IMG/VR virus record: IMGVR_UViG_3300013121_000005
Location: 64,001-128,000 of that record
DNA length: 64,000 nucleotides
Origin: a virus
Lineage: Duplodnaviria; Caudoviricetes
Strand: one strand, 5' to 3'
Part shown: in pieces, positions 10,695 to 60,835 of the stretch
How positions within the stretch are numbered: the first letter of the stretch is position 1
Layout: each line of letters opens with the position of its first letter
Made by a program: the position numbers and the translations under genes
The notes under the pieces: model-generated
Told to the model about the DNA's origin: nothing
Database searches by the model: none
The model's input: only the letters and a program-made list of their open reading frames with translations

Positions 10695-10961
10695 ATGTCT
10701 AGGGACTACGACCTTGGTTTGTTTGAAGTTCAGGGCTCTTCTGGGTTGGATTCCTTCTTTGCCAGAGAGCCTGAAATTGTGACTCCTCGTTCTCGGCGTA
10801 AGATTGCGTCGATTCAGGACCTTTCAGCTTTTGTCCGGATCGGAGCTGACCAGTTGGTTCATAAGGCAGATAGAGACCTTTGGGCAATCAAGCGTGATGC
10901 GCAAGGTACCCTATCCATTGAACGACAGTTTGACGATAATGGTCAACCTCTACGCTTTTGA
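10695..10961 (+). CDS. hypothetical protein
   Basis: RBS present, tiles the operon; contains RKIA|S. Confidence 0.7.
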   Translation: MSRDYDLGLFEVQGSSGLDSFFAREPEIVTPRSRRKIASIQDLSAFVRIGADQLVHKADRDLWAIKRDAQGTLSIERQFDDNGQPLRF

Positions 10962-10971
10962 GGGGTTTTGA

Positions 10972-12324
10972 GTGAACACTCGGCAAAGAGTTAGGGTAGT
11001 TGTTGCAAGGGAGGGAGGTGCGCCTCTTCCTCTTGATTCTGATGGGTCGTCCTCTGGGAAGCGAGCGATCCCGTCTAAGCATCGCTTTGACCCTAAGGCT
11101 TTAAAGTCTCTAGCGAGAGCCCTTTTCTCGGCTAGTGTGGCTTTGGGGCATTCTGTTACAGCGTACAAGGTATTTGCTCGTATCAAGTCGGCCAGCATTT
11201 CTCCTGATGGGATGCTTGGGGGTCGAGGGTACGTTCTGCAAGTTAAAGAGGTTCGGGCGAAGCTTCAGCAGGCATGCGAGCTTCTTTCTGCTGTTACTGA
11301 TACGATGCATGATGAGATTAATGCTCCGCATTGGAAGCCTAAGCTTGGTGAGCTTGGTGCAAATGATGCGGAGGATATCCTTGAGCTTCTTGGTGAAGCG
11401 GACGATGTTCTGAAAGACCCTGAGGCATTTGGCGACAAGGGTCTGGAACAGGTAGAGGAAAAGAATGATGGCCCTAAGGGTACTTCTAACGCTTTGAAGT
11501 GGAAGGACACTGAAGAGGGATCTCAAATGCCTGGGGGCGAGGAATCTCGCCCTCCCAAGGAAACCTCTAAGTTGGCCAATAGTTCGGTCCCCGTGACAAC
11601 TCTTCCGGGACCCCGAGTGGATCATTTGGATCGTGGGGAGCAGCTTGGTCCAGGGGGGTCTTATAATAGGGATGAGCCCCCGGTAGAAGATGCTTGGGGT
11701 CTTCCAACTGGGGATGAGATTTACGAAGGGTCAAGTTCTTTGACCGGGACCTGGGGTGTTCAGCTCGCTGCTGAAGGGGCTTGGGGTGCAGCGGCCTTGC
11801 CTGACGGCAAAGGGGATGGGACAGCTACCCAGGCAGATGATTTTGGTCTTGGTTACGGGGCGAAGGGTCAGGGTTCTCAAGGGTATGGTACCCGTAGCCC
11901 TGATGGTCATGGTGTGTGGGGCCCTGCAAGTGGTTTGCCCCATGACCCTAAGACTCCAACCCGAGACCCAGAGGAAGGTGCTACGCCTTACCTGGATGGG
12001 ATTGGGCGTAATGTATGGGCGTGTGATTCTGGTTGCTCTTGTTCCCAATCCAAGTTGCCTTTTGACGGACCTGACGAGGTTGCTCGATCAGACTACTACA
12101 GGGAGGATCGGGGCAACCAGTTCAATGTGAACCGTTCTGCTTGGCGTCCTGTGGAGTCTGACTCTACTCTACCTGGGGATCAGGGCTCTGCGTACAACTT
12201 TGACCGAGATTTACCTGATGTTGGGGGTAAGCTGGAACGACAGGATGTGCCCTATGTCAAGTACGATTGGGGTACCCATCAGTATCGCCATGATAAGCAG
12301 GATCTTTGGGGCGTGACAAAGTAA
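10972..12324 (+). CDS. hypothetical protein with disordered G/D/P-rich C-terminal half
   Basis: 450-aa ORF with GAGG RBS; repeated S-x-LP-x-D elements. Confidence 0.75.
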   Translation: MNTRQRVRVVVAREGGAPLPLDSDGSSSGKRAIPSKHRFDPKALKSLARALFSASVALGHSVTAYKVFARIKSASISPDGMLGGRGYVLQVKEVRAKLQQACELLSAVTDTMHDEINAPHWKPKLGELGANDAEDILELLGEADDVLKDPEAFGDKGLEQVEEKNDGPKGTSNALKWKDTEEGSQMPGGEESRPPKETSKLANSSVPVTTLPGPRVDHLDRGEQLGPGGSYNRDEPPVEDAWGLPTGDEIYEGSSSLTGTWGVQLAAEGAWGAAALPDGKGDGTATQADDFGLGYGAKGQGSQGYGTRSPDGHGVWGPASGLPHDPKTPTRDPEEGATPYLDGIGRNVWACDSGCSCSQSKLPFDGPDEVARSDYYREDRGNQFNVNRSAWRPVESDSTLPGDQGSAYNFDRDLPDVGGKLERQDVPYVKYDWGTHQYRHDKQDLWGVTK

Positions 12325-12335
12325 GGTGCGTAACA

Positions 12336-14345
12336 ATGTCTACTGAGTTAGACCTTTCTGAATTTCTGAAGGCAGGCGCGGTGTCCAACCTGGATTGGTT
12401 GGAGGTCAACGAGGAAGACTACCGACGTCTAGACCGTCTGCCAAAGCAGAACCTTGATTTTGCTCCGGATCTTGAGGCTATGTGGGCTCATGAGGGTAAG
12501 TCTGCGAGTGCCCACCTAGTTCCAAATTCGGGTGCCCCTCGACCTGCGGACTTGAGCGAGGTGGGAGTCTCGAAGGAGTCTTCAGAGCAGGTCCTTAGAG
12601 TTGCTCGTCTTGCTTTGATGCAGTCGAGAGACCTGCAAAAGTTCAAACACGCCTTGGTATCTCGGTTCGACAAGACGGTCCTTCGAGCTTCTCGGGGTGC
12701 CCTCGCTTCTCTACTCCAAGAGCGTGGGCTTCTTGGGTCGTATTACCTCGATGCGGCTGACTTTCCTGGGTGCCATCAGGCACCCAAGAAGGTGCTCGCC
12801 TTCGTTAGGAAGTACGCGAGTAGCTCACTGTTTGTTGTCTCGAAGAGTCAGTGCCAAGGTTGTGTCCATGCCGGGGACACCTGTGGGGTGTTCCAAAAGA
12901 AGCTTGTTTTGGAGGTCCCTTACTCAGAGAGTCTGGCAAAGGCTGTTGAGCGTTCACAGTCGTCTAAGGGTAAGCAAGTCCAAGCTAATACGACCGCCGA
13001 CCCTAAGGATAGGATTCGTCTAGCCTTTTTGGCGGATGATGTGTCGGTAGTGGGGTCTGCGGAAACCCCAAAGCCAATTCTCAACCCCTCTCAACAACTC
13101 CGTGAGGTAAAGGCTCCTGGTAGGGTTCATCTTCCTGTACTTAGCTCAGAGCAGCAGCGTCTCATTGAAGCTGAACAGGCTTGGGAGCCCGAGATTGCAG
13201 CGGGCAAGACGGCTTCTTCCAAAGTTAAGGAAAGCAGGACAGCATTCGAGATCGTAAACCTTCTTCGTCGTGAAATGCTTAGGGGTCGAGGTGAGTCTGA
13301 GCTGTTGCAATCCTTGAAGCTTTCCTTCAGCTTGGCAGATTTGAAGGCAACTCGGGCTTCTTGGGAGCCTCTTTTCAAGCAGGCAGGCTTTTACGGTACG
13401 ATTTATGCAACTCAGACCTCATTCGACGATTGTCCTACGGGAGCTGACTTCCTTGCGAAGTTTAACCCTAGCCTCAAGGTGATCGTTGCTGGGGGTAAGT
13501 GCCAGGGTTGTTTCTACAACAAGATGGCCCGGTGCATGATGTATGGGCGTCCTTTGGTAGCTCGGGCTGAGGATGCTTTCACTCCTGAGGTGGTTCAGAG
13601 TGTTATTTGGGAACACCGATTGGCTGGGCGCTTGAGTACAGGGGCCGATAAGGTTGTGTGGGGCTCAACTCCACAAGAAGCACTGAAGGCAATCTACCGA
13701 GTTGCCTCGGAAGCTAATCAACCGAAGAAGTCTTCGTCAGTTAGGTCGTACGTTGAGCAAGCTTTTCGTGGGAAGGACCACAGGCATGTTACAGCAGGTC
13801 TCACGAAGCGGGAGATTCTGAGGGCTACAACTCGGTATCTCAATGAAGGTCTGTATGGTGCTCAACTTGAAGAGGCTCTTAGGCGTCGGTTTGACCCTAG
13901 AGATTTGGTTGCCTCTCGTGAGGACTTGAAGAGTGTTATGGCTGAGCAGGGGCTACAGGGGATTTACTTCGTAGACCCTACAATTTACGAGGACTACGCT
14001 AAGGGTTGCGAGGAAGGTGCTCGTCTTCATCGGGCTCGCCTGGTTCCGTATGTTAAGTTGGGCTCGAAGTGCTCGACTTGTATTAGCCAGTCGAACCCAG
14101 GGACCTGTTCCAAGTATAACAAGCCGCTTGTTGTGGATCCTCCCTATGCGGACAAGCAGGCTCAGCAACGTGAGATCCTTGACTCTGGCAATTCTACGGA
14201 AGTCTCTCTTGCTAGCCTCATGAATGGGAGCAAGTCGATTGTGGCTGAGTTTGGAATGCAGAGCATGACTATTGATTTGGACCCTGAGCCCGTGAAGGGC
14301 CCACAGGTTCAAGTGGAGCTTGGTGGTACCAAGTTTGATCTATGA
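12336..14345 (+). CDS. hypothetical protein with three internal 4-Cys repeats
   Basis: Three ~110-aa units, each G[LF]xGxxY..C..CxxC..C..K/P-LV. Confidence 0.8.
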   Translation: MSTELDLSEFLKAGAVSNLDWLEVNEEDYRRLDRLPKQNLDFAPDLEAMWAHEGKSASAHLVPNSGAPRPADLSEVGVSKESSEQVLRVARLALMQSRDLQKFKHALVSRFDKTVLRASRGALASLLQERGLLGSYYLDAADFPGCHQAPKKVLAFVRKYASSSLFVVSKSQCQGCVHAGDTCGVFQKKLVLEVPYSESLAKAVERSQSSKGKQVQANTTADPKDRIRLAFLADDVSVVGSAETPKPILNPSQQLREVKAPGRVHLPVLSSEQQRLIEAEQAWEPEIAAGKTASSKVKESRTAFEIVNLLRREMLRGRGESELLQSLKLSFSLADLKATRASWEPLFKQAGFYGTIYATQTSFDDCPTGADFLAKFNPSLKVIVAGGKCQGCFYNKMARCMMYGRPLVARAEDAFTPEVVQSVIWEHRLAGRLSTGADKVVWGSTPQEALKAIYRVASEANQPKKSSSVRSYVEQAFRGKDHRHVTAGLTKREILRATTRYLNEGLYGAQLEEALRRRFDPRDLVASREDLKSVMAEQGLQGIYFVDPTIYEDYAKGCEEGARLHRARLVPYVKLGSKCSTCISQSNPGTCSKYNKPLVVDPPYADKQAQQREILDSGNSTEVSLASLMNGSKSIVAEFGMQSMTIDLDPEPVKGPQVQVELGGTKFDL

Positions 14346-14731
14346 GCGATGATGCTCTCATTCTTCGGGTTGCAGCTCGCTTTCTTCACGCTGATCAGCC
14401 CCCTGGTCAGCGTCGTCGAGACAAATCCTTAGTGAAACCGGTCAACCCTCCTAAGGGGATCGACCGTAGTATCGCTAAAGAACATGGTCAACCCATGGAG
14501 GATGCCCATGATGAGGTGGTATCTCCAGATCGTCGAGACCTCCGTCCTATAGACTTGTTTGTCCCGAAGCCAGATCAGGTTAGTGTCCGAAATTTGGCTG
14601 AGACTGGTCGTGATTTGGCAAGAGCTATCCAGAAACAGATTCCAAAGGACAAGGGCTATGCTACAGTAAGGAATCTGTCTCAGTATCTTATCGAGACTGA
14701 GGGCGGTGGCGGTACTCCTCGAATTCAGTGA
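14342..14731 (+). CDS. hypothetical protein with N-terminal RVAARF motif
   Basis: ATGA overlap; starts MSDDALILRVAARFLHAD. Confidence 0.75.
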   Translation: MSDDALILRVAARFLHADQPPGQRRRDKSLVKPVNPPKGIDRSIAKEHGQPMEDAHDEVVSPDRRDLRPIDLFVPKPDQVSVRNLAETGRDLARAIQKQIPKDKGYATVRNLSQYLIETEGGGGTPRIQ

Positions 14732-18719: not shown

Positions 18720-19775
18720 ATGGGGCTTGTTTACCTAGACTCAATTGCACTTCGAGTGGCGGCTCGGTACAAGTCCAAGAAGACTTTGGAGTCTGGGACG
18801 GTTGTGTACGAGTATGGTCCTCGCCAGATAGCAAATCGCAATCGCCAGAAGGCGGAGCGGGTTGAGAAGCTTCGGCAGTCTATCAACAAGCTCCGAAAGA
18901 AGGTCATGTCTGACCTCAAGAGTGATGACCTGAAGACCAAGCTGACAGCTTTGGCTGTGGCCCTCATCGACCACACTTACGAGCGCGTTGGGAACGAGGA
19001 CTCGGCTGAGGGGGGTCATTTTGGAGTCACGGGCTGGCAACGTCAGCATGTGACCTTTGGGAAGGGTACCGCGACGATCAAGTACGTTGGGAAGTCTGGT
19101 GTCAAGCATGAGAAGAAGATCAAGGACGGCACCATCCTCTCGGCTCTTCGTTCGGCTTACGACGCTGTTGAGGAGAACGAGAGCAGCATCTTCGCCCACA
19201 AGGACGCAACCGTGTCCTCGAAGGAGGTCAACGAGTACCTCAAAGACTTCGACATTACGGCTAAGGACCTTCGCGGGTTTCATGCGAACCGTGAGATGCA
19301 AGAACGGCTGAAGGGTATCCGGAGCAAGGGCCCCGAGCTTCCTCGGGAGCGCAAGGCAAAGGACAAGATTCTCAAGTCCGAGTTCAAGAAGGCTCTTGAG
19401 GGGACTGCTGAAGCGGTCGGACATGAAGCTTCAACTCTACGGAGCCAGTACCTCGTCCCTTCTCTGGAGGAAGCCTACCTACACGACGGCTCTGTTATCG
19501 AGAAGTTGAACGAGAAGGTGGCTATGGAGTGCAGCCCAGACCCGCCTTTGTTGTTCGCAGATCGGATCATCCGTCAACTTGTGGACCATATGTTAGGGGC
19601 TGATCTCATTGTCGAAGAGAACGACTTCCAAGTCATTCGTTCCGTTTTTCGGAGTTGTAGTGGAAGTTGGGAGAAGATTCTGAGTGGGGATCCCGTTCAC
19701 AATGAGTTGCTGAAAACGGTGGTTACTTCTTGGGGTCAGATGCCTGGGCGCAAGAAGGACATGGAGCGCGTCTGA
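18720..19775 (+). CDS. DNA topoisomerase IB (poxvirus/bacterial type)
   Basis: ERVGNE, YVGKSG, TAKDLRGFHA, VGHEASTLRSQY catalytic motifs. Confidence 0.9.
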   Translation: MGLVYLDSIALRVAARYKSKKTLESGTVVYEYGPRQIANRNRQKAERVEKLRQSINKLRKKVMSDLKSDDLKTKLTALAVALIDHTYERVGNEDSAEGGHFGVTGWQRQHVTFGKGTATIKYVGKSGVKHEKKIKDGTILSALRSAYDAVEENESSIFAHKDATVSSKEVNEYLKDFDITAKDLRGFHANREMQERLKGIRSKGPELPRERKAKDKILKSEFKKALEGTAEAVGHEASTLRSQYLVPSLEEAYLHDGSVIEKLNEKVAMECSPDPPLLFADRIIRQLVDHMLGADLIVEENDFQVIRSVFRSCSGSWEKILSGDPVHNELLKTVVTSWGQMPGRKKDMERV

Positions 19776-20293
19776 TGGAACTGCCCCGGTCTAGAGATTG
19801 TATCGCCTTGATGAAAGGTGATGCCTACCCGGTTACGGTTTCGACCGCTATGGCTGTTGGCGGGTGGCAGGGGGGTCAAGGAGTTCAATGGGTATCGTCC
19901 TCTAAGGATGAATTCCTGGTGACCTACTCGGATGGGTATTACGCCGGGTTCATGCTCTGGGGGTCAAATGAGGAGGGGGACAAGCACACGGCGATGTCGG
20001 GGAACCAATCATTCTACCGATTTGCCACATGTGGTGCGGGGGGCTGGCAAATCTCAACTCGAAGCTATGAGAAGTACACTTACGCCTCTAGGATTGGAGG
20101 TGGGCCCCTTGTCCCCATTACCTACAATGCGAGTGACCGACTTGTTTTTAGTTTGAGGGGTTACTGGACGGTCCAGGATGAGTGGACCCTTTCGGGAGAC
20201 CCTCGGGGGGCTAACACCTATTACATAGGGTTTGTGTCTCAGGTTCCAAGTGCGGTGAACAACTTTTACTTAGGCATTCAGGTAAGCATCTAG
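19775..20293 (+). CDS. decoration-protein-like paralogue 1
   Basis: PRSRDC..KGD, GGWQGGQGVQW and YTYASR motifs shared with 20734 and 21269. Confidence 0.7.
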   Translation: MELPRSRDCIALMKGDAYPVTVSTAMAVGGWQGGQGVQWVSSSKDEFLVTYSDGYYAGFMLWGSNEEGDKHTAMSGNQSFYRFATCGAGGWQISTRSYEKYTYASRIGGGPLVPITYNASDRLVFSLRGYWTVQDEWTLSGDPRGANTYYIGFVSQVPSAVNNFYLGIQVSI

Positions 20294-21787: not shown

Positions 21788-22260
21788 AGTGGGGTCCAAT
21801 GCCTTCTAATCAGCAGCTCGAAGAAAGTCAGATGGAGGTTGGGGGTCAGACTCCTGAGGAGTTGTGCGTTGAAGCTCGCCGACTAAGGGGGGTCATTGCT
21901 TCAGCAGCCGAGCAGCTTCACCATCTCTACTCCTTGCTATACCATCAGGCCCGCAGAAGCAAAGCTACCGAAACCACCTACGCTTACATCAATGTGGCTA
22001 ACTCTGGTCGTCGTCTTGCAGGGGCTGTACTTCAAGGCATTCGACGGGCGTCGGCATTTGATCGTGCACTAGAGGTTGCTAGGCAGGAAACTCAAGATCG
22101 GGAGTCTCGTGAGGAGAAGGCATCTCGTGAGGCTGCCCGTGGTAAACGAGACCTTTCTGGGTCTAAGGGTGCGACGATTCGACAGATGCTTCAAGACACT
22201 CAGGATGATGCTGCTTTGTCAAATGACCTTGATAGCCTCTTCGGACAGGAGGAGGGCTGA
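21784..22260 (+). CDS. hypothetical helical protein
   Basis: Tiles the operon; TGATG overlap with the portal gene. Confidence 0.65.
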   Translation: MKWGPMPSNQQLEESQMEVGGQTPEELCVEARRLRGVIASAAEQLHHLYSLLYHQARRSKATETTYAYINVANSGRRLAGAVLQGIRRASAFDRALEVARQETQDRESREEKASREAARGKRDLSGSKGATIRQMLQDTQDDAALSNDLDSLFGQEEG

Positions 22261-24050
22261 TGTCATCGGATCGGTACACGAATGTTCGTAGGGGGGTGTC
22301 TGGGGCCTCTCAGCTTCAACAGGGCCCTCGTTATCACGCTCCCTATACGTCTAAGGGGGGTTTCTCAACTTTGACCGAGAAAGAGAAACTGGCTCGCAAA
22401 ATCACGAAGACTGCGGTTAGTGGTAGTGTCTCTGGCACGAATACGGCGATGTCTGGGACGAGTTCATTCTTCTCGCCTCAGCTTTCTACTGACTTCTTGG
22501 AGTTGCCTCAGAGCCTACGTGAAAAACGAGAGGTTTTCAGGCACTTTTACAACACGGACCCGATTGTAGGTCAAGCTATTGACCTACATACAGAATTACC
22601 CCTCTCCAAGATTCGTCTGGCGAAGCCAAAGCCTCGAACGTGCCCGGAAGCCTTTAAGAGTCCTGAGGATTACGGCAGGTACATTCTCAGCTTCTTCCAA
22701 AGGATGACTAAGCGGGTGAAGTTGTTTCAACGCTTGATCACTGCCGCACATCACTACTACTTGGATGGCAACGTTTTCATTTTCGCTGAGGATGGGGTTG
22801 TCGATGTGCCTCGTGAGATTGGGCATGAGGTAACTAAAAAAGTATCGCGGACATTGGAGGAAGATGGGACGGGTCGTGAGGAGGTAGAAGAGAACGTTTC
22901 CGAGCTTCCCGACCGGGAAGACCGTGAATTGGCTTACTACCAGAAGCATTACAAGGGCTGGGATAAGCTTATCATCTTGCCCATTGATCAAGTAAAGCTC
23001 ACTAGCTTTAGCTTTGTGGATAAGTTTACCATAGACTTGATCCCTTCAGATCGGGATAGGGCGCTCATCGAGCGAGCTAAAGCTGGGGATGAGATTTCTG
23101 CCAAGATAGTTGATGAGATCCCACCGGAGGTAAGGGACTTCATTGAGTCTGGTAAGTTGATTCCTCTTGGTACGGATCCTGATGAGGGTTCATTTTGCTT
23201 TCACCTGAAAGCACGAGCTGGGGCTGGAGAGGAGCTTGGCGCAAGTCTCTTAGAGCGTTGTCTTAGAACCCTTTACTATCGTGAGAAGCTTCGTCAGGCT
23301 CAGACCCTTATTGCGTCTCGTGCAATGACTCCCAAGCGACTTGTCTGGGGTGAAAACCTTTCGGACACAGATACCGACGACCTTCGTGAGCAGGTGGACC
23401 TTGCTCTTGTCGACCCAGACTACTCGATCGTCACGAACTACGAGGTCCACTGGGAGGAAATTGGAGCCCGGGATAGGCTTCTTGACTTGTCGGGTGAGTA
23501 TGAGATCACGGATAAGCAACTCTATGCTGGTCTTGGGGTGACAGAGAGCCTTCTCAACGGGGAGAGTTCCTTTTCTGGTGACCGTGTGAAGTTGGAGGTT
23601 CTCAACACAAGGTACCTCCTCTTTCGCGAGGTCATCCAGGAGTACGTTGAAGAGTACCTTTTCAAGCCGGTTGCTAAACGGAAGGGTTTCGTAGAGACCG
23701 ATGAATGGGGGGATGAGGTGGTGCTTTTCCCTCGTCTTTCGTTCACTCGGCTCGCTCTCCGCGACAGTCAGGATACGTACGACGCTCTCTTCAATTTGTA
23801 TCAGAAGGGGAGTGTCAATATCGATCTCATTCTGGAGATGTTCAATATTGATCCGGAGGACACCAAAGAGAAGATTGAGCGAGACATGTTCACGGTTAAT
23901 GACGCCGTGTTCAATGAGGTTCTACGTGGGGTCTATGGCGAAGTCGGTAGGCTACTAGCTGAGAAGACCGACATTGTGGACCGAATCGCTCAATACTTGG
24001 GGCTCCAGACCAAGGCTGAACCGGCTGCGGAAGAGCCGGGTCGGTTCTGA
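22260..24050 (+). CDS. portal protein
   Basis: RHFYNTDPIVGQAIDLH, YYLDGNVFI, GASLLERC, LYAGLGV..LL.G motifs; ~600 aa; lies between TerL and protease. Confidence 0.85.
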   Translation: MSSDRYTNVRRGVSGASQLQQGPRYHAPYTSKGGFSTLTEKEKLARKITKTAVSGSVSGTNTAMSGTSSFFSPQLSTDFLELPQSLREKREVFRHFYNTDPIVGQAIDLHTELPLSKIRLAKPKPRTCPEAFKSPEDYGRYILSFFQRMTKRVKLFQRLITAAHHYYLDGNVFIFAEDGVVDVPREIGHEVTKKVSRTLEEDGTGREEVEENVSELPDREDRELAYYQKHYKGWDKLIILPIDQVKLTSFSFVDKFTIDLIPSDRDRALIERAKAGDEISAKIVDEIPPEVRDFIESGKLIPLGTDPDEGSFCFHLKARAGAGEELGASLLERCLRTLYYREKLRQAQTLIASRAMTPKRLVWGENLSDTDTDDLREQVDLALVDPDYSIVTNYEVHWEEIGARDRLLDLSGEYEITDKQLYAGLGVTESLLNGESSFSGDRVKLEVLNTRYLLFREVIQEYVEEYLFKPVAKRKGFVETDEWGDEVVLFPRLSFTRLALRDSQDTYDALFNLYQKGSVNIDLILEMFNIDPEDTKEKIERDMFTVNDAVFNEVLRGVYGEVGRLLAEKTDIVDRIAQYLGLQTKAEPAAEEPGRF

Positions 24051-24080: not shown

Positions 24081-26969
24081 ATGGATGTCTTAGCTACAAA
24101 AACCTTTGGGGAAGTTGAGGATGAAGAGGCAGAGCGTCTTGTACGCCCACTTCCTAAAAAGAAGCCTCCTCGTAGGGATCGTCGTCGTGAGGAGATGCAA
24201 ACGGAACGAGATCCTGATGTAGAGGGGGATTCGGATCTCAAAGGGGACCCAGACCTGTCCTTGAATTACAAGTCGGTTGGGGGTTCTATGCCCCGTCGAG
24301 TAGCTCGTAGATTCTTAGGGCAAGAGGACAGGACGATTTCAGTCCGTCGTCGAGACACGGGTCGAGTTGTTCAGGTTTCTGAGGAGACGCTCAAGGAAGA
24401 GGGTAGTAAGTACGAGAAGCTGGAAGAAGAGGAGAGGGGGGAGGGGGGCTCTAAGGGGGATGCTCTCAGGGACTTGGCCAAAGACAAGCCTCAACTCCAG
24501 TCGGTCTTGAAGGACTTGATGAACCCAAGGTCAGACCTTGGGGGTTTGGCGGAGGGAAATCCTAACCTACCTGCTTCTACAGTCGTCAAAGGGGTACCTC
24601 TTCCCGAAGGGATCAAAACTCTTGGGGACCTAGTGAAGGCTTTGCGAGCAAAGCCTTCCAAGCCAAAGCCAAAGTCTAAGACCCCCTCTGCTCCTACGCC
24701 TCCTCAGGCTCCCTCTGAGGCTCCTACGCCTCCTCAGGCTCCCTCTGAGGCTCCTACGCCTCCTCAGGCTCCCTCTGAGGCTCCTCAGGCTCCCTCTGAG
24801 GCTCCTCAGGCTCCCTCTGAGGCTCCTCAGGCTCCCTCTGAGGCTCCTACGCCCCCTCAGGCCCCCTCGCCCGAGGGGAAGAAGCCAAAGTCTAAGCCCA
24901 AGCCTGAGCCTGAGGAGAAGCCTGAGGAGAAGCCTAAGTCTGCGGTGGACTTCCCACCTCCACAACGTAAGCCGCCAACAGAGCAAGAGATTCTGGAGGC
25001 AATGGATTTGGTCCATAGCACGAACCTCCCTCCTGGGATTCGGGCTAAATTGCTGGTCCTACACCCAGCCGACGTGAAGGAGGTCCTTGCTAGCTACAAT
25101 GGCTTCAATTCCTTGGAGGACCCTAAGGATTTCAAGGAAGAGCTTGAGGCTGCCGGGAGGAACTTTACCTTGGACCCCAGCAAGGTCACTTCTTTGCCTA
25201 CAAAGGTGACAAATGCGAAGGGGGAGAAAAAGCCTTTCGAGAGTTTGTCAGAGACGGAACAAGCGCAGGCTGTACAGGCACATCGGAATGCGGTTGTAGC
25301 TGCAAGCTTAGCCTCACAGATGCGCGTAGTTCGTTCAATGGTTAGCTCGGGGATCCCCGAGTACCTAGCAGCTAAGCTCTCCTACTTTTCGCTGTCGACT
25401 GCAAACTACCCTCCGGAAGTGCGAGAGCGTAAAGCACACGAAGCGGCTCTGTCCACATTTACGGAGGCGGTTACCGGGTTTTCAGGTAAGGCGGAAGAAG
25501 AGGACGAAAGATTTGGGTCCTTTATCCAAAAGATACGGCGTAAGCTTTTCGGGGATGACGAGCGTAGGAAGTACTTGAAGGCTATTGAAAAGCTTGACCC
25601 TCATACGCAGATGGCTGCGGTGGCACACCTTCAGGGTGAAGACTATAGGTCAATTTCAAGTCGATTTCTGAATTCAGATTCGAGAGATAGAATCTCTGAG
25701 TTTGACTCTCCGCAGAAGATTAGCCGTAAGCTCTCATTGGCTTTGGATGCCTTTCGGAAAGCGAGTCGGCAGTACCCCTCTGAAGTTCGAGCCGCACTCC
25801 CAGACCCTTCAAGGGTTTTTCGGATCGTGGTGCGCCAGTCCTTGAGGGAGCTTGATCCTGAGAAGGCTAAGGCAGTCAGTAGGGTTATGCTTGAGGTTGA
25901 TGCTGACGCCTACGATAAGGCTATGATTGAGTACAAGGAGGAGGAAAAGCTCTTTCAGAAGGCTTACAAGGAGTACGAGCGGGAGTACCAGTTGTGGGAG
26001 AAAGCCAAGAAGAAGTACGAGGCTCAACAGTTGAAGGGTAGTCCTTATCGGGTTGTTACGGAGCCCTTTAATCAAAGCCCCCCAGAGCTTCCGTTGAGTC
26101 CAGAACTTCCGGTTAAGCCCATTGGGTATGAGACTGTCCGAAAGACATCCAAGAAGGATCGGGAAGAAATTCAAGACAAGCTTGACGAGCTTCGTGGAGG
26201 TAAGACCGCTTCTCTCTATTCTTCTTATGCCAGGCGAAAGCAGATGACGTCAGCTATTGCTCCTTATCCAAAGTGGCAACAGGCCCATCAACGGGACCTT
26301 GGGGCTAAAGATTTTGACGTGATCTTGAAGGCTGCCAAGGATTGGCTCAAGTCCCCTATGCTTTCTACCCATATTGAGGGGATGGTCCCTGATGCTAGGT
26401 TTCGAGCATCGCTTGATTTGGCTATCCAAACCTCTGAGGACGGGAAGTATGCGAATGCGCTAAGTCCAGTCCTCTACAATATGCTTCTTGCCAAGCTCTC
26501 GAATCAGCCTGAAGGTGAGACTCTTTTGACGGTGCGCAAGGCACAAAGTGAATTGAAACTAGGAACCGCTGAGGGAAATGCCATGACAATCAAGTTTGCT
26601 AAGGCTCATGCCAACAATATCCTGGCCCGTCTGGACAAGATTGCGGCAGAAATTCAGGACAAGTATGCCCAGTGGGGCATGGACTTTGATGATGCCAAGC
26701 GCATGGTGAATGACCTCGATCAGGCTGCTGACGCGATCGAGAAGGCAGCTTTTGGCGAGGAGTCGTTTAGGGCTCGACAGATTGAAGTTCTCAAGTCCGC
26801 AAAGGTTATCCAGCAAGATTCAGATGAAGGGTATATGGGGACATTCAATGCCCCCACAGCACCTCATCAGTCTGATTCGGATGAGGAGTACATGAGCCTT
26901 TACAAGGATGACCAGACGCAGGGTGTGCAGAGTGGCAAGTCGTCAACAGGCCGCCCCCTTGCTCCTTGA
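24081..26969 (+). CDS. large head-associated multi-segment protein
   Basis: 962-aa ORF with RVARRF and KTAS motifs and a Pro-rich linker; possible internal starts at 26244 and 26583. Confidence 0.75.
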   Translation: MDVLATKTFGEVEDEEAERLVRPLPKKKPPRRDRRREEMQTERDPDVEGDSDLKGDPDLSLNYKSVGGSMPRRVARRFLGQEDRTISVRRRDTGRVVQVSEETLKEEGSKYEKLEEEERGEGGSKGDALRDLAKDKPQLQSVLKDLMNPRSDLGGLAEGNPNLPASTVVKGVPLPEGIKTLGDLVKALRAKPSKPKPKSKTPSAPTPPQAPSEAPTPPQAPSEAPTPPQAPSEAPQAPSEAPQAPSEAPQAPSEAPTPPQAPSPEGKKPKSKPKPEPEEKPEEKPKSAVDFPPPQRKPPTEQEILEAMDLVHSTNLPPGIRAKLLVLHPADVKEVLASYNGFNSLEDPKDFKEELEAAGRNFTLDPSKVTSLPTKVTNAKGEKKPFESLSETEQAQAVQAHRNAVVAASLASQMRVVRSMVSSGIPEYLAAKLSYFSLSTANYPPEVRERKAHEAALSTFTEAVTGFSGKAEEEDERFGSFIQKIRRKLFGDDERRKYLKAIEKLDPHTQMAAVAHLQGEDYRSISSRFLNSDSRDRISEFDSPQKISRKLSLALDAFRKASRQYPSEVRAALPDPSRVFRIVVRQSLRELDPEKAKAVSRVMLEVDADAYDKAMIEYKEEEKLFQKAYKEYEREYQLWEKAKKKYEAQQLKGSPYRVVTEPFNQSPPELPLSPELPVKPIGYETVRKTSKKDREEIQDKLDELRGGKTASLYSSYARRKQMTSAIAPYPKWQQAHQRDLGAKDFDVILKAAKDWLKSPMLSTHIEGMVPDARFRASLDLAIQTSEDGKYANALSPVLYNMLLAKLSNQPEGETLLTVRKAQSELKLGTAEGNAMTIKFAKAHANNILARLDKIAAEIQDKYAQWGMDFDDAKRMVNDLDQAADAIEKAAFGEESFRARQIEVLKSAKVIQQDSDEGYMGTFNAPTAPHQSDSDEEYMSLYKDDQTQGVQSGKSSTGRPLAP
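24690..24863 (+). repeat. in-frame 30-nt (APTPPQAPSE x3) and 21-nt (APQAPSE x3) tandem repeats
   Basis: gctcctacgcctcctcaggctccctctgag x3, then gctcctcaggctccctctgag x3. Confidence 0.92.
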
Positions 26970-27020: not shown

Positions 27021-28805
27021 GTGATTGACTACTGGCGTCTTGTCAAAGAGTTTTCCCAAGGGGATGCGGTCCAAAAGATCGACGTTCAAACGGGACAGCT
27101 CTCCCCGTATGTTGGGAAGGTTACAGCCGTCCATCGAGGGATTGGGTGTCTTGACGTACAGTGGCCATTCGGTAATGAGCGAGTCTTTCCTGATGATGTG
27201 GTAAGAGTTAGCCCTGAGTTTATCAGGTATCTACCCCCTGCCTTTGATCAGAGCTACAACTCAATTGAGATTGAGAATGCGAGAAAGGCGTCGACCCCCC
27301 TCTGGCGGCATACCCAATTTTCGCCAAGTCTATATGTCACCTTAGCTAAGTACTGGCACAAGGGGGCTAATGAGGTCCTCGCGTATGATGACCTCTATCG
27401 AGCTTATGCCCCCAACATTGATGATGAGGCTCTTCGGGATGAGGTGTCGAAGTTTTATCGTTTCGCTACTAATGCTGGGGAGCTTCGGATTCAACAAGCC
27501 ATTCAAAAGTCTGGGGCTTATTGGGTAGCTCAAAATCGGCAGTACCGGGCAACAGGGGAAGACCTCAAACTCGGGAAACCGGCTTGCCCGAAGTGCAGTG
27601 CGAGGATGCGTCGGGCAACGTACAAGATGCATGAGGGGGCGAAGCACAAGGTTTTTGCTTGCCCTAAGTGCCTCTATCTAATTGACCCTCAATCGATTCT
27701 TGGTCCAACTGGAGAGCCTCATAACTGGTTTGGGACCGCTTTACCCCCCATCAGGGCTTCGGTCCGCCCTTTTGTAGCCGAGGAAGAGGAGACAGGTAAA
27801 GGTGGGGTTCCAGCACGATGGCAGGAATGGTTGGATTCCGTACATCAGCAGGGACGAGAGAAGGTACCTAACCCCAATTTAGCTACTAAAAAGCAGCACC
27901 CACAAGTCAGCTTTTCAACTGCATTGAAGGATGAGTCTGTTTTTCGCAAGGCGCTCAAGGATTACCACGAGTGGGCGAAAAAGAACCCTGGTAAAGGGGA
28001 GGCTTCTACGTCTGCTGAGAAGTCTAGTGCTAAGGGGCTTACGGTAAGTGTCAAGGTTGTTGAAGGTATACTTGAGAAGCATAAGTCCAAGTTTGAAGCC
28101 ATTTCTGCCCTCATGCGGTCAGACCTAAAGGCATTTGAGAAAGAGCTAAAGAAGCCACCTCAAAGCTCTATGGCGAAAGCTGGGCACAAGTGGGCACTCA
28201 AGCAGTGGGAGAAGTTATCTGAGCCAGAGAAAATGATGGTTGCGGGGGGGCATCGGGTTGCTGAGTACTTTGAAAACCATGTGGTGAAGGACCCTGAGGC
28301 CCATGAAGAGTACATGGGGGGTTGGGCAGGCTCTACGGGGGGTGAGGCTGCTCAAAAGATATGTGGCGCATTAGCTGCAATGGGGGTTAATGGTAGCCCT
28401 TCCCCTACTGATAAAGAGGATGCAGAAAAGCAACGTAGGGAGGGAGCTAAAGCCAAGGAGCTTGGTAGCTACCTTGAGGAGCTTTATGCCTTCACCCAGG
28501 CCCATTTCAAGTATATGGGTCTGAAGTCTATTAAAGGGTTCCGAGGGGTCAAGGGGCAGGGGTTGGATAAAGACCCTCCTTCGGAAAATGACGAGGTGCA
28601 ATTCAAAACAAGAGAAGCTTCCTCTTTTTCCATGAACCCCAAAGTTGCAGTAGGTTTCGGGCGGGTAGTAGAGTACAGTATTCCTGTAGAGAAGATCCTT
28701 GCTTCTCCTGGTACGATGGGTCAGAAATTCAAAGGGGAGGCTGAGGTAATTATGATGGGGGCTTCAGATATGACTGGTAAGGTAGTTAGCGGAGCTAGGG
28801 TATGA
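27021..28805 (+). CDS. zinc-ribbon protein with C-terminal R-S-E type ADP-ribosyltransferase-like domain
   Basis: CPKC..CPKC ribbon; C-terminal GFRGV, SSFSMNPKVA and GEAEVI motifs. Confidence 0.65.
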   Translation: MIDYWRLVKEFSQGDAVQKIDVQTGQLSPYVGKVTAVHRGIGCLDVQWPFGNERVFPDDVVRVSPEFIRYLPPAFDQSYNSIEIENARKASTPLWRHTQFSPSLYVTLAKYWHKGANEVLAYDDLYRAYAPNIDDEALRDEVSKFYRFATNAGELRIQQAIQKSGAYWVAQNRQYRATGEDLKLGKPACPKCSARMRRATYKMHEGAKHKVFACPKCLYLIDPQSILGPTGEPHNWFGTALPPIRASVRPFVAEEEETGKGGVPARWQEWLDSVHQQGREKVPNPNLATKKQHPQVSFSTALKDESVFRKALKDYHEWAKKNPGKGEASTSAEKSSAKGLTVSVKVVEGILEKHKSKFEAISALMRSDLKAFEKELKKPPQSSMAKAGHKWALKQWEKLSEPEKMMVAGGHRVAEYFENHVVKDPEAHEEYMGGWAGSTGGEAAQKICGALAAMGVNGSPSPTDKEDAEKQRREGAKAKELGSYLEELYAFTQAHFKYMGLKSIKGFRGVKGQGLDKDPPSENDEVQFKTREASSFSMNPKVAVGFGRVVEYSIPVEKILASPGTMGQKFKGEAEVIMMGASDMTGKVVSGARV

Positions 28806-28951
28806 GTAGTCCAAAAAAGAAGCCCCTTGAAGTTCATTTGGATGAAACTAATGAGGATTGGCTTGCGGGGATGCGAAAGTCTAAGAAGGCTGGCTCCCAA
28901 GTTAGGGTTAACCGTATTGTAGCCAAGGTGATTAGGAATTGGGTTACTTGA
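28802..28951 (+). CDS. 49-aa ORF not in the track (MSSPKKKPLEVHLDETNEDWLAGMRKSKKAGSQVRVNRIVAKVIRNWVT)
   Basis: ATGA overlap with the upstream stop, GGAG upstream, fills the gap to the protease gene. Confidence 0.55.
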   Translation: MSSPKKKPLEVHLDETNEDWLAGMRKSKKAGSQVRVNRIVAKVIRNWVT

Positions 28952-28963
28952 AGGTAGTTGAAG

Positions 28964-30707: not shown

Positions 30708-31997
<1,290 letters not shown>

Positions 31998-50033: not shown

Positions 50034-50708
50034 ATGCACACTCTTGTTCGAGCCCGAGACCTTGCCTGGAAGGTAGCTGCTGTTGTTCTTTGGAAGTACA
50101 CGGACGACGACGGCAAGGAGTTCTACCTCCCGGAGAAGAAGACCGGGACGATGAAGAGCCCCTACACGGGTAAGAGCTTCACGGTGAAGCCGGAGAAGTC
50201 GTCCCTCAGTGATGTGAGCAAGGAGCTGAAGGAGGAGGATGCCAAGGTTAAGGGGGCCCTCTTCAAGTACACGGACGACGATGGCAAGGAGTTCTACTTA
50301 CCTCAGCGGGTGACGGGCACGCTCAAGAGCCCTTACACGGGCAAGAGCTTTACGCCTAAGGCGGAGAAGTCGACCCTCAGCGATGTGGGTAAGGAGCTGA
50401 AGCAAGACGCGAAGACGAAGACGGCCACCTCCGAAGAGCAGTGGGAGCTGGCAGCCGAGATCCTTGACAAGGGGGAGGCCCACCCAGCTATTAAGGCTCT
50501 TAAAGTTCAGTACGACAAGATCCTAAGTGGTATCAAAGAGGCTGCTGAACGTTCCGCTAGGATGAAGAGGGTGGGGGTAGGTCGTACTGAGGACCCTACT
50601 CTTGTGCTTGCTCACGTCATGCCTGAGATTAAGGAGCTGGGTGAAACGGCTGAGGTTATCGCTAAGCAGATGATACAGCGATTCAAGCCGAAGAGTCCGG
50701 GTTGGTGA
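50034..50708 (+). CDS. protein with duplicated 57-aa module
   Basis: KYTDDDGKEFYLP..G..KSPYTGKSFT.K.EKS.LSDV.KELK twice (period 171 nt, from 50094 and 50265). Confidence 0.8.
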   Translation: MHTLVRARDLAWKVAAVVLWKYTDDDGKEFYLPEKKTGTMKSPYTGKSFTVKPEKSSLSDVSKELKEEDAKVKGALFKYTDDDGKEFYLPQRVTGTLKSPYTGKSFTPKAEKSTLSDVGKELKQDAKTKTATSEEQWELAAEILDKGEAHPAIKALKVQYDKILSGIKEAAERSARMKRVGVGRTEDPTLVLAHVMPEIKELGETAEVIAKQMIQRFKPKSPGW

Positions 50709-50713
50709 GCCAT

Positions 50714-51430
50714 ATGAAGAACCTTCTCGCATGGAAGAGTAGGTCTGCGTCTGAGATGGCGCCTCCCGCAACTTACCCAGGGATGGCTCCGCTTCCTCCC
50801 TCCAAGGGGGATGCAACCCAAGTTATTTGGCATGACCCTTCCACCTATGACCCTTACTTCCATGGGCCCCCGTATCTACCTGGGGTGCAAGGCCATCTAG
50901 ATCGGACAGCTTCAATGAAGAGCAGTGCAGAATTGGTTGTAGCGGGGCAAGAGCTTCCCGTAGCTTTGACGTTGCTACGGGCTCTTGGTGTTGTGCATCA
51001 AACTCACCACTGGCTTACTAAGGGTCCCAACTACTATGCCGACCATCTCCTGTTCGAGAGGGTTTACAGCCCCCTTGCTGAGGAGATTGATAGCCTTGCT
51101 GAAAGAGCTGTTGGGACTGGCTCTCCTTCAGTCCTTCTGCACCCCGCTATTCAAGCACGAAAGGCAGCAGAGATCGTTGAATCTCTGTGTGATGGGGTAG
51201 ACTATGAGGAAGGTGCAAACACAGAGTCCTATGTGGCTGCCAGCCTAAGAGCTGAACAGTGGTTCGTTTCTTTCATGAAGAAAGTTGCTGAATCAATGAA
51301 GGCATCCGGGACGCTTTCTCGGGGGATGGACAACCTACTTGCTGGCATTGAGGATAAGCACGAAGAGCATATCTATTTGCTTTCGCAACGACACAAGACA
51401 GCCTCTGACCCGTGGAAGATCACTGAGTAG
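50714..51430 (+). CDS. Dps/ferritin-like protein
   Basis: HHWLTKGPNYYADHLLFERVY..EIDSLAER ferroxidase motif; EEHIYLL. Confidence 0.8.
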   Translation: MKNLLAWKSRSASEMAPPATYPGMAPLPPSKGDATQVIWHDPSTYDPYFHGPPYLPGVQGHLDRTASMKSSAELVVAGQELPVALTLLRALGVVHQTHHWLTKGPNYYADHLLFERVYSPLAEEIDSLAERAVGTGSPSVLLHPAIQARKAAEIVESLCDGVDYEEGANTESYVAASLRAEQWFVSFMKKVAESMKASGTLSRGMDNLLAGIEDKHEEHIYLLSQRHKTASDPWKITE

Positions 51431-58619: not shown

Positions 58620-58730
58620 CAGGTCAGGAGGGCAAGGGGCATCCAGCCGTGACATAGGTCCGCCGCTAAAGCGGCACCTGTCACGGCTGGTGTGCATTTT
58701 GCCTCAGACCTTGTTCGTCTTGCCCTTTCC
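58619..58730 (+). other. long intergenic stem-loop after the sheath gene
   Basis: CCAGCCGTGACA/TGTCACGGCTGG 12-bp perfect stem with inner GCCGC-TAAA-GCGGC and outer arms. Confidence 0.7.
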
Positions 58731-58756
58731 CGCTCCTCGGTTTGAAAGAGAGAAGC

Positions 58757-60835
58757 ATGGACGTTCTCAAAGCTCTAGTGGCGGTTCGTAAGGCTATTCG
58801 GGTTGCCACCATCCGATTGAACGAAGTTGGGGACCGGGTAGAGGTCTCGGGGCCCTATAGCGAGATGGTAGCTATCAACCCTAAACTTAAGTCTAGGGGA
58901 TTTTGGTGGGACCCCTCGAAGAAAGTTTGGTGGATCTCTAGGGGTAAGTTGACAGACCGACAGATGCAAGGGCTAAATGACCTTCTGTATGGGAAGTCTA
59001 AGAGCAAGGAAGAACCAGCAAAAGACACCACGCAGGAACTCACTGATCTGTTTGACCAAGCCGCAGGAGAGAAACTTGTTGGGTTTGACTTTGTGAAACT
59101 TCGTGGGGGGTTGACCCTCTCTGGGCGTACCTTTGACTTGACAAGGGAAATCAAGAAGGCGGGAGGCTTTTGGCGGGCTGATTCCAAAGAGTGGTGGTTC
59201 TCTGTCAGTGAGACGAATCTCGATGGTTTCAAGCTATTGTTGCGGGACCTAAAGCGTGAGTCGAAGGTTTTTGAGGGTCGTCAGAAGGATGTCCTGGACT
59301 TGGTGGGGGGCCAGGATCGGAAATGGCCCAGACTTAGAGTTTGGGTTCAAGTAAGTCCAGATGGGAAAGGTATTCCTCAAGTAGTCGTTGGGGGGGACAC
59401 TAAACCCGTGTACTTGCTAATCAAGGAGTGCCTCTCAGAGGTTCGTTTCGGAGGTTCGTCTTGGTCGGTACCTGCATTAGCAACAAGTAAAGACGAGTTG
59501 ACTAGACTCTTTTCAAAGCTTGACAAACAGGAAGCGGCTAAGGAAGAGGTTGAGGGAAAGGCCCCACAGAAGCGAGAAAACTCCCGAGGGGCCCATTGTG
59601 AACGGTGTGGAGTTTGGGTCCCTCCTGGGGAAGGCTACCTTCAACAGGAGCTGAACTCAGATGATGAGGACTTCGTGTGGAAGGTTTTCCACAAGGATGT
59701 GGAAGTCTGCAAAAAGCGTCTTGAAGAGGTGAAGCTCCAGCGGGAGTTGGCTCAAACGCAAAAGGAAGCGTTTCGGAACCTCCACAGGCTAATTGCAACT
59801 CCAGGTAACTACGTGTCTGGGAAGAACATCATCCCTCCCGGGCAAGAGATTCCGTTGTCAGGTAGTGGGTCTCGCCTTTATGGGGGAGGGACATGGCTTG
59901 TTCTAGAGCCTGATGGCCGACATGTGTGGTATGTCCAGAACAACGGCGCTGATGGGGATGATTGGGCACGGAATAATATCCAAACTGGTGGGGCTGGCGC
60001 CATTGGGTGGCGTGCGGCTGTGACAGATGAGCTTCAAGTTTTGATTGACGCTGTTTCTGGGAAGAAGACGGCTTCCTATTCCTATGATAGGACAGCGAAG
60101 TCATTTGACCTCCAGAGATGGGGCTTAGGGGGTCTTCTTCAGGGGGAGCCCGTTGTTTTGTACCACGGTACAACTCGAACCTTCAAAGCGTTTGACCTCT
60201 CGAAAAGTCGGGAGGATCTCGTCAACAAGTACTACGGCAGGGGTATTTTCTTGGTCCCCTCGAAGCGGATTGCGGAACAGTACGCCGAAGCCAATCGTAA
60301 TATCGGCTTTGACCCTTCGATTGTTGACGACTTGAAAATGCGCAACCCTGGTGCGGGCAAGTTCATGGAGGAGTTGGTTGCCCGTGGGGATGATGTTTGG
60401 GAGGACCTCACCCCTGATAAGTTAGGGGTGGAGCCTGGTGAACAATTCCAGGAGGCTGTCGTTCGGATGGTTGGAGGTGTAGACCCTAACACGATTGCGG
60501 ATGTGGCTAGGTACGTCCTCGGCAGTAAGCTCTCCCTCTCCTTCAGTGAAGAGCCAGTTCACATTTTCAACATGAGTACTGGTATGCCTGAGTACATGTA
60601 CGCGAACTTGGATGAGTTGGGTTTGGATTCAGAGGTCTATCGCCCGAAAGTTTACAAAGTGGCTGTCAAGGTAGAAAACGTTCTTGTCACAGCTAGTAAG
60701 TCTGAGGCTCGTAAGGCGCAGTCTAGGGGGTATGATTGTGTCGTTTTCCATGGTTCGGATCTTGTAGGTGGTGTCCCAGAGGTTGCGGTCTTTAGCCCCC
60801 ATAGGGTCAAGATTCTTGGTTATGAAGTGGTGTAG
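58757..60835 (+). CDS. multidomain protein: three GxxW..W modules, Zn-like motif, and C-terminal H-type ADP-ribosyltransferase-like domain
   Basis: LKSRGFWWDPSKKVW, IKKAGGFWRADSKEW; CERCG..H..C; after KTASYSYDRTA: LYHGT..FD..GRGIFL..AEQYA..GYDCVVF..EVAVFSP. Confidence 0.7.
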   Translation: MDVLKALVAVRKAIRVATIRLNEVGDRVEVSGPYSEMVAINPKLKSRGFWWDPSKKVWWISRGKLTDRQMQGLNDLLYGKSKSKEEPAKDTTQELTDLFDQAAGEKLVGFDFVKLRGGLTLSGRTFDLTREIKKAGGFWRADSKEWWFSVSETNLDGFKLLLRDLKRESKVFEGRQKDVLDLVGGQDRKWPRLRVWVQVSPDGKGIPQVVVGGDTKPVYLLIKECLSEVRFGGSSWSVPALATSKDELTRLFSKLDKQEAAKEEVEGKAPQKRENSRGAHCERCGVWVPPGEGYLQQELNSDDEDFVWKVFHKDVEVCKKRLEEVKLQRELAQTQKEAFRNLHRLIATPGNYVSGKNIIPPGQEIPLSGSGSRLYGGGTWLVLEPDGRHVWYVQNNGADGDDWARNNIQTGGAGAIGWRAAVTDELQVLIDAVSGKKTASYSYDRTAKSFDLQRWGLGGLLQGEPVVLYHGTTRTFKAFDLSKSREDLVNKYYGRGIFLVPSKRIAEQYAEANRNIGFDPSIVDDLKMRNPGAGKFMEELVARGDDVWEDLTPDKLGVEPGEQFQEAVVRMVGGVDPNTIADVARYVLGSKLSLSFSEEPVHIFNMSTGMPEYMYANLDELGLDSEVYRPKVYKVAVKVENVLVTASKSEARKAQSRGYDCVVFHGSDLVGGVPEVAVFSPHRVKILGYEVV

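Follow-up and report, generated by a model that had tools for sequence, protein, structure and literature searches.

A predicted prohead protease cut motif and a portable N-terminal peptide as two separable codes in a giant phage related to phage G

The DNA considered here is a 64,000-nucleotide window (bases 64001-128000) of one 363,484-bp contig with 53% G+C, which derives from an uncultured giant phage related to Bacillus phage G. Two short motifs recur in its proteins, the KTAS-type motif [KR]-x-A-[SA] and an RVAARF-type peptide (the "tag" below). Both are real beyond chance, yet they are two separable peptide codes with different support. In the explanation we favour, to which we give a probability of roughly 0.55 overall, the first motif is the cut site of an assemblin-fold prohead protease and the second a docking tag that targets its carriers to the capsid. 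A preliminary description of the window had merged the two into a single "addressing and maturation system", which is partly supported. The motif instances that it listed all exist, with two corrections that concern the placement of RIVAKVIRNW and RVAARF. All real genes of the window lie on the plus strand, and genome positions above 64 kb are given in window numbering extended across the genome.

The prohead protease and its predicted cut sites

The prohead protease (568 aa; 28958..30664, with a likely true start at the ATG at 28964) consists of a catalytic domain at about nucleotides 29090-29857 and a conserved C-terminal domain. It matches phrog_18299, a head maturation protease (E = 5.6e-12), and is homologous to the annotated prohead proteases of Tunturiibacter phage Tunturi_5 and Rhodococcus phage E3, while sequence and profile searches of PDB, Pfam, and NCBIfam gave no match. 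An AlphaFold model of the protease domain, built on a diverse alignment of 60 domain sequences, had a predicted local distance difference test (pLDDT) score of 91 (an earlier 20-sequence alignment gave 44 and was discarded). Compared via VIA-align, this model was closest to the proteases of varicella-zoster virus (1vzv; Z = 10.6, root-mean-square deviation 3.4 Å, 128 aligned residues), pseudorabies virus (4v08; Z = 10.0), and T4 (gp21, 5jbl; Z = 9.3), followed by the assemblins of herpes simplex virus, Epstein-Barr virus, human cytomegalovirus, and Kaposi's sarcoma-associated herpesvirus at about Z = 8. All 37 top rows belonged to this fold. Foldseek matches were weak (top match gp21, probability 0.87, E = 0.011), with gp21 and the assemblins ranked first. 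The protease is thus modelled as an enzyme of the herpesvirus assemblin/T4 gp21 fold, and the earlier assignment to this fold is borne out by Z scores of 8-10.6, compared with 6.2 for the next fold.

Among 60 diverse homologues, His131 and Ser182 are invariant and His233 is nearly so (numbering of the 568-aa protein). The gene order portal (22260), protease (28958), scaffold (30708), and major capsid protein (32778) is the same in Tunturi_5 and phage G. An invariant Cys cluster in the protease (C192, C195, and C206, with His208 nearby; residues ~185-235, window positions 29500-29700) resembles a small zinc-binding insert. To our knowledge, an insert of this sort does not occur in T4 gp21 or the herpesvirus proteases.

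Candidate self-processing sites bracket the catalytic domain. On the N-terminal side lies RQAA (29075..29086), part of a conserved F-x-x-[RK]-x-A which occurs in about 32 orthologues and in 86 of 99 close homologues, although the windows of the latter set were chosen on [KR]-x-A and do not independently test P3; P1' is Ser or Ala in 41 of 73 distinct sites. The equivalent position reads KTAS in the related contig L053 and KTAA in both Tunturi_5 gp331 and phage G gp19, and the last two also carry K[VI]AS directly past the catalytic domain. Across 176 members of the protease family, taken from a library clustered at 50% identity, [KR]xA[SA] has a density of 0.0005 per residue within the catalytic domain, 0.07 at 10-14 residues before it (the -14 to -10 peak to which the RQAA position corresponds), 0.05 at 20-24 residues before it, and 0.018 at 30-49 residues after it. 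Bracketing of the domain combined with depletion inside it would be the pattern of a self-processing enzyme.

The scaffold-like protein (30708..31997), encoded between the protease and the decoration and capsid genes, has a conserved N-terminal region, an acidic tract, a Gln-rich body, and a conserved C-terminal stretch of 45 residues. Its KTAS at residues 89-92 (30972..30983) is near-invariant, being part of the string NHPE-KTA[SA], which is almost invariant in 47 aligned orthologues and directly followed by a hypervariable acidic indel. A second KTAS at residues 113-116 (31044..31055) is kept as [KR]-x-A-[ST] in most of these orthologues. At the boundary of the Gln-rich body and the conserved C-terminal 45 residues stands RTAA (residues 381-384; 31848..31859), of which R381, T382, and A383 do not vary among 23 sequences (consensus RTAS-TRTVGTRP). 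By its position, this site may be the analogue of the herpesvirus maturation site.

The major capsid protein (MCP; 290 aa, 32778..33650) is of HK97 type without a delta domain (PF05065, phrog_2522) and carries KTAA (32823-32834) and KLAAS (at 32844) near its N-terminus. Throughout the clade the KTAA/KLAA pair does not vary; Tunturi_5 has KSAA/KLAA in its place, phage G lacks it, and cleavage at these sites is uncertain. Two sites proposed earlier probably reflect chance, namely TKTAV (at 22404) in the portal protein (22260..24050; phrog_16240), which has no [KR]xA[SA] in 596 aa, and EKVA (19512-19523) in the type IB topoisomerase (TopoIB), which is conserved only loosely as K-x-A.

Several other proteins carry the motif, some of them at domain junctions. 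The Dps/ferritin-like protein (50702..51430; NCBIfam DpsA over residues 84-227) has an N-terminal extension and contains RSAS (50741-50752), RTAS (50903-50914), and KTAS (51395-51406). A [KR]-x-A where the extension meets the Dps core is found in 9 of 9 Dps orthologues with the extension (IWxDPSxYDPxxxGPPYLP) and in 0 of 3 without it. The C-terminal KTA[SA] is followed by short variable tails (DPWKITE, DLWKRR, SYDRR). Tails after KTAS (51395-51430; L064:15986-17587, L053:17180-18676) share an Asp/Trp-Lys pattern, as in DPWKITE, SDQWKAG, VDDLIWKA, and DLWKRR, and may constitute a third, C-terminal tag. The 224-aa protein (50034..50708), which has an internal duplication of 57 aa, contains KVAA (50070-50081) and KTAT (50418-50429), and its leader LAWK..A[AS] resembles that of the adjoining Dps gene.

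The 962-aa protein encoded after the portal (24081..26969) is a candidate internal or ejection protein with KTAS at 26202-26213; in its family, [KR]-x-A-[SA] is kept at the junction of a hypervariable, insertion-rich segment and a conserved YSSYP...QRDL domain. A 697-aa protein (58742..60835), encoded among virion genes just past a sheath-like gene, ends in an ADP-ribosyltransferase (ART) effector domain of the ART-PolyVal family from about nucleotide 60140 (PF18760, E = 2.5e-12). Its KTAS (60065-60076) is directly followed by YSYDR (60077-60091), and only one partial relative was found. A 679-aa protein (12306..14345) has KTAS at residue 301 (13206-13217). The GKTAS strings of the 679-aa and 962-aa proteins were considered as Walker A motifs and rejected, as they lack a Gly at the required distance upstream and orthologues vary there.

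Motif counts were compared with expectations from within-protein shuffles, and all tetrapeptides were ranked since the motifs had been picked after viewing the sequence. KTAS occurs 6 times in the late block (0.3 expected) and 10 times genome-wide (1.8 expected), and the broad motif [KR][TLVQ]A[SADT] 25 times in the late block (12.2 expected). Among late-block tetrapeptides, KTAS ranks 16th (p = 2e-6), behind Gln- and Pro-rich repeats, and third among words present in at least four proteins; for the window alone, the enrichment is suggestive and not decisive. Low-complexity repeats dominate k-mer enrichment in this block, with seven PQAPS/PSEAP units in the 962-aa protein and long GQQQ/QAQQ tracts in the scaffold. 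The contrast drawn previously with the replication genes (window 1-9.7 kb), where KTAS is missing, carries no weight because only ~0.05 copies are expected in their 3445 residues.

The enrichment found genome-wide extends to relatives. In 80 related head modules, KTAS occurs 92 times (7.0 expected), 54 of these in scaffold orthologues and the others at many non-homologous positions (the families of the protein encoded at 37338 and of the 962-aa protein, the protease, Dps-like proteins, and unrelated accessory proteins), often 7-20 residues from the C-terminus or about 16 from the N-terminus. Of the six KTAS copies that the complete Tunturi_5 genome encodes, five lie in the last 35 kb, which hold the head/ejection module, and the sixth is the Walker A loop of a helicase. 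KTA[SA] occurs 15 times in this genome (4.5 expected), mostly in virion-type or ART proteins. About 12 of the 15 belong to proteins labelled by Phold predictions rather than proteomics: an ART toxin with three copies, the motif-rich gp348, the protease, the tape measure, a DarB-like protein, and one protein each of the minor head, virion structural, and "DNA ejection" kinds. Per protein, [KR]xA[SA] exceeds expectation in Tunturi_5 gp348 (12 vs 2.6), gp328 (11 vs 2.7), gp350 (9 vs 2.4), and gp332 (7 vs 1.7), in the scaffold (6 vs 0.65) and Dps-like protein (4 vs 0.47) of the window, and in the phage G protease gp19 (3 vs 0.47).

Herpesvirus assemblins (MEROPS S21) cut (V/L/I)-x-Ala-Ser between Ala and Ser, once behind the protease domain (release site) and once close to the C-terminus of the scaffold (maturation site). 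The phage system shares the fold, Ala at P1 and Ser or Ala at P1' as read from sequence patterns, a site just past the catalytic domain, and a site near the scaffold C-terminus ahead of a conserved tail. In contrast to assemblins, P3 at the scaffold and Dps-junction sites is Lys or Arg rather than a hydrophobic V/L/I, different genes encode the protease and the main scaffold, an extra self-site lies on the N-terminal side, the host is bacterial, and cleavage is predicted. Because the layout is like that of assemblin sites except for the basic P3, [KR]-x-A-[SA] is likely to be the cut site of the protease, with the presumed scissile bond after the Ala. The earlier proposal of KTAS as the protease site draws support from the bracketing in 176 homologues, the inner depletion, three near-invariant scaffold positions, and the Dps junction.

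This cut code would be common to the whole phage-G-like lineage. The protease would free itself by cuts on both flanks of its catalytic domain, and the scaffold would be cut at three or four conserved sites, one of which would part the conserved C-terminal tail from the Gln-rich body. Head-associated proteins would be trimmed at domain junctions, among them the Dps-like protein, the 962-aa protein, and probably the ART protein.

The RVAARF-type peptide and other leaders

RVA[AR]R[FY] occurs five times in the genome, where 0.03 copies are expected. Generalized as h-h-x-R-[VI]-[AV]-x-[RK]-[FY], the tag has 18 genomic copies (about 1 expected), of which 14 lie within the first 30 residues (P = 9e-11). 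Its Arg is typically 7-12 residues from the Met, and a Pro/Gly/Lys-rich linker follows. Synonymous codons vary among the tags, which indicates selection on the peptide and not a DNA repeat. The bodies of the carriers are unrelated: TopoIB, a 129-aa protein, three of four HELGH zincins, two DnaJ-domain proteins, and several unknowns.

The 129-aa protein (14342..14731), which has no family matches, bears RVAARF at residues 9-14 (14366-14383) ahead of a Pro/Gly/Arg-rich linker. TopoIB (18720..19775; PF01028, E = 3e-26) bears RVAARY at residues 12-17 (18753-18770), and no KTAS-type site follows the tag in either protein. Five orthologue lineages of TopoIB keep the tag (RVAARY, VVAKY, RVVARY, RVAARF, IVAARY), and it decays to KSAKF where another domain is fused in front. 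In the 962-aa protein, the tag is at residues 73-78, within the tag-like RRVARRF (24294-24314); it is kept near residue 70 in 22 orthologues, and in some it stands straight after KTAA (KTAA-RVAARF). The placement "at or near the ends" given in the preliminary description therefore applies to the N-termini of the 129-aa protein and TopoIB but not to the 962-aa protein. RIVAKVIRNW, in turn, is the weak tag-like C-terminus of a separate 49-codon open reading frame (28802..28951, ending in RVNRIVAKVIRNWVT), outside the 594-aa protein encoded between the 962-aa protein and the protease. In relatives, many small, mutually unrelated proteins whose genes adjoin the capsid gene begin with the tag, one instance being a tandem pair.

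Several further observations concern the carriers. The TopoIB gene lies between the terminase and portal genes, and its sole homologue among 50,697 deposited phage records is in LR745208. In place of the N-terminal domain that cellular and poxviral TopoIB usually have, the enzyme has the short tag and a KSKK linker, and relatives encode it as a fusion with HAD-like or very large partners (open reading frames of 907-1605 aa). Clustered at locus L003 (150177-162911) are the genes of two DnaJ-domain proteins, of HExxH zincin-like proteins, and of a ClpX-like protein whose N-terminus is a Zn-ribbon. Most of the proteins bear the tag at an N-terminal, internal, or C-terminal position, and in the two DnaJ-domain proteins it adjoins the J domain.

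Two other tag-like strings are treated as incidental. The MCP ends (33609-33650) in LTRLVVTR plus V, F, I, or L, a string similar to the tag core R-x-V-V-A-R-F whose last residue is variable among relatives. GREILVVSRLL in the C-terminal domain of the protease belongs to a conserved folded domain.

That the RVAARF-type tag is a capsid address is a tentative reading of these sequences, somewhat short of even odds. Under it, the tag would be a younger, clade-specific, portable N-terminal docking peptide (residues ~7-17, then a flexible linker) on about 14 unrelated proteins. It would most likely work like the T4 capsid-targeting sequence (CTS) by bringing its carriers into the assembling prohead, and we infer both the packaging of the tagged enzymes and a receptor for the tag on this basis. 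As the R-V-A-A core fits the cut motif, tagged proteins may lose their first ~11 residues.

A second portable leader, M-x-Y-[SDNK]-Y-D-R-[RT], usually has RTAA, RAS, or RVAA within a few residues after it. Leaders of this YSYDR type occur at genome positions 203120, 272778, and 280846 and in relatives L030, L031, L034, L063, and L075. YSYDR also occurs internally in the ART protein (KTAS-YSYDR), and YSYDR/SYDRR forms the C-terminal tail after KTAS in some Dps orthologues. In LR745208, another recurring N-terminal peptide, MTTLRSKLIRLAHxxPxLRPxLLPLLKEA, is found on two head-region proteins (L001 33171-33575(-) and 24893-25948(-)), and a similar DNPSLRPGLM follows the C-terminal KTAS in an orthologue of the 962-aa protein (L043:1548-5048). 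A modular grammar, in which RVAARF and YSYDR leaders, short C-terminal tails, and cuts after the Ala of [KR]-x-A-S load and release a changing set of enzymes for injection, is a doubtful extension. Its cargo would include TopoIB, Dps, ADP-ribosyltransferase, zincins, and DnaJ co-chaperones.

Weighing the explanations

Several observations weigh against the joint explanation of a cut site and a capsid-targeting tag. For the cut site, KTAS within the window alone fails multiple-testing correction (Bonferroni ~0.3), the motif counts in relatives are phylogenetically non-independent, and there is no per-protein enrichment of [KR]xA[SA] in the portal, TopoIB, ART, and 962-aa proteins. The KTAS of the 679-aa protein, which had been named as a site, lies in a hypervariable, indel-rich linker and is not conserved in three orthologues; it is probably lineage-specific or due to chance. 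The failed correction would also suit both motifs being artefacts of chance, composition, or paralogy, as would the two genomic KTAS copies from paralogous inteins, the Walker A copy in Tunturi_5, and three internal tag copies in neighbouring, possibly paralogous genes. Against the replication in 80 relatives and a distant genome, the positional profile in 176 proteases, and the N-terminal bias of the tag (P = 9e-11) with its synonymous codon diversity, however, an artefact has a negligible chance of being the cause. Many kinds of short motif occur in linkers, and [KR]-x-A-[SA] could be a non-proteolytic one that serves binding or modification in head-protein linkers. This is very improbable given the bracketing of the protease catalytic domain with depletion inside it, the match to the Ala-Ser specificity known for the same fold, and the density of the motif in scaffold-like proteins, which must leave the head.

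The difficulties for the tag as a capsid address are that no more than 3 of its 18 carriers are encoded in this genome's head module, while eight lie at 150-163 kb beside the ClpX-like gene and the J proteins, and that the tag is absent from Tunturi_5 and from the head regions of LR745208 and phage G, all of which have the cut motif. About half of the tags lack an A-[SA] pair (such as RVVSRF, RIATRF, NIIARF, and KVVTRY), and the R-[FY] after RVAA is strongly conserved with no counterpart at KTAS sites. No receptor has been identified, a complex prediction of TopoIB residues 1-45 with MCP and scaffold having scored 0.19, below the 0.32 mark, which is evidence neither way. Of the pairing of a prohead-targeting RVAARF with KTAS, the portable N-terminal peptide stands, and the link to the head is weakened by the absences in Tunturi_5 and the phage G head region and by the few carriers in the head module. 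The eight carriers beside the ClpX-like gene (two being DnaJ-domain proteins), the 15 of 18 outside the head module, and the absence from Tunturi_5 despite the common head protease code would be accounted for if the cut site holds and the tag docks to some other hub, such as proteostasis machinery (ClpX-like unfoldase, DnaJ-domain proteins, and host DnaK) for which it would be a client or adaptor signal, or is an oligomerisation handle of a general kind. Its basic-hydrophobic-basic pattern also fits the general textbook rule for DnaK binding. Such a hub is nonetheless rather unlikely, as in relatives many small variable proteins encoded immediately after the MCP start with the tag, it is conserved in the protein encoded after the portal (sometimes right behind KTAA), the tagged TopoIB gene lies between terminase and portal genes, and its strict conservation points to one specific receptor pocket and not to generic chaperone binding. 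It is more unlikely still that RVAARF is the N-terminal form of the cut site, R-V-A-A cut between the two Ala residues, marking a propeptide of ~11 residues with targeting located elsewhere. RVAA, RIAA, and RFAA do fit [KR]-x-A-[SA], this motif shows a modest genome-wide excess at residues 11-16 (12 vs 4.8, P = 0.004), YSYDR leaders likewise end in RTAA, RAS, or RVAA, and the placement 7-12 residues from the Met is narrow. However, the A-[SA] pair is missing from about half of the tags, the strongest conservation lies at R-[FY], downstream of the supposed bond, and the tag segment is predicted as an amphipathic helix, which would be a poor protease substrate.

Genome setting, known systems, and significance

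By capsid protein, the nearest named relatives are LR745208 (uncultured, 485 kb; 83% identity) and Tunturi_5 (47%), followed by Bacillus phage G (37%) and cluster C mycobacteriophages (~28%); a search of deposited phages at the DNA level found no relatives. Hundreds of IMG/VR contigs (280-530 kb) encode a capsid protein with 91-97% identity alongside other head proteins with only 40-70% identity, a range that suits conservation tests. The protease family alone comprises ~1850 clusters at 50% identity, which indicates a very large uncultured clade. Within the window, a 216-aa protein is encoded between the scaffold-like gene and the MCP gene, and neck and tail genes follow downstream of the latter with the Dps-like and ART-PolyVal genes interspersed. 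Three tandem paralogues of ~175 aa (19730-21787) all match one LR745208 gene (L001 ~22119-22649).

The large terminase gene (15359-18718) is interrupted by an intein with a LAGLIDADG domain. Paralogous inteins in the ClpX-like protein (151735-154077) and a 1099-aa protein (222238-225537) contain KFIPH.YKTASRE.RL...AGL.DT, and inteins are also frequent among protease homologues in databases. Upstream of 25 genes, often at 9-18 or 41-61 nucleotides from the start codon, stands the enriched word (C/T)TGGTGTA(G/A), which may be a promoter or a translation-related element. TGGTGTA and two other candidate upstream words do not link the tagged genes with the head genes, and the majority of these tagged and head genes lie within long operons.

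Phage heads are known to package and proteolytically release enzyme payloads, as with T4 Alt and the internal proteins bearing a CTS. T4 offers likenesses in the protease fold (gp21, Z = 9.3), in a short N-terminal leader on unrelated proteins (IPI-III and Alt), in a packaged ADP-ribosyltransferase (Alt), and in a leader that contains or precedes the predicted protease motif, here RVAA or RIAA in about half of the tags. In contrast, T4 cuts after Glu (L/I-x-E), the tag is unrelated in sequence to the CTS, and the carriers here include TopoIB, zincins, and DnaJ proteins. The CTS is removed, as the tag may or may not be. Encapsulin cargo-loading peptides and the C-terminal capsid-targeting tail of the HK97 protease are likewise short terminal peptides that dock cargo inside an HK97-fold shell, but they are C-terminal and unrelated in sequence, whereas docking of the present tag is a prediction.

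The prohead proteases phiKZ gp175 and SPN3US gp245 cut A/S/G-x-E in many head and ejection proteins (PMC10052503). These giant phages resemble the present one in having many processed internal proteins, multiple propeptide sites, and protease self-cleavage, all of which are predicted here; they differ in their specificity after Glu and belong to an unrelated lineage, and their sites were set by mass spectrometry rather than from sequence. For polyvalent proteins, which include ART and zincin domains, packaging followed by proteolytic release is predicted (Iyer et al. 2017, PMC5512222). In common with these and the phage P1 Dar system, ART-PolyVal, zincin-like peptidases, and a DarB-like protein (Tunturi_5) occur among virion genes. 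That framework contains no linear address or cut code, and the cargo candidates here are mostly short-tagged proteins of a single domain, in contrast to giant fusions. In the literature on phage G and its relatives we found no cleavage rule, and a multi-omics paper on phage G gives no cleavage sites.

If cleavage after the Ala of [KR]-x-A-S is true, the trimmed head proteins of phage-G-like giant phages and the positions of the cuts could be read from sequence. The Ala-Ser specificity of herpesvirus assemblins would then occur in tailed phages, adding to the evolutionary link of both groups. If the tag is a capsid address, the injected proteome would be unusual, comprising TopoIB (as in poxvirus virions), Dps, ART, zincins, and J proteins, and the tag would be a short peptide by which foreign proteins could be loaded into large capsids. 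The modular grammar, if true, would represent a second, independently evolved capsid-address system beside that of T4.

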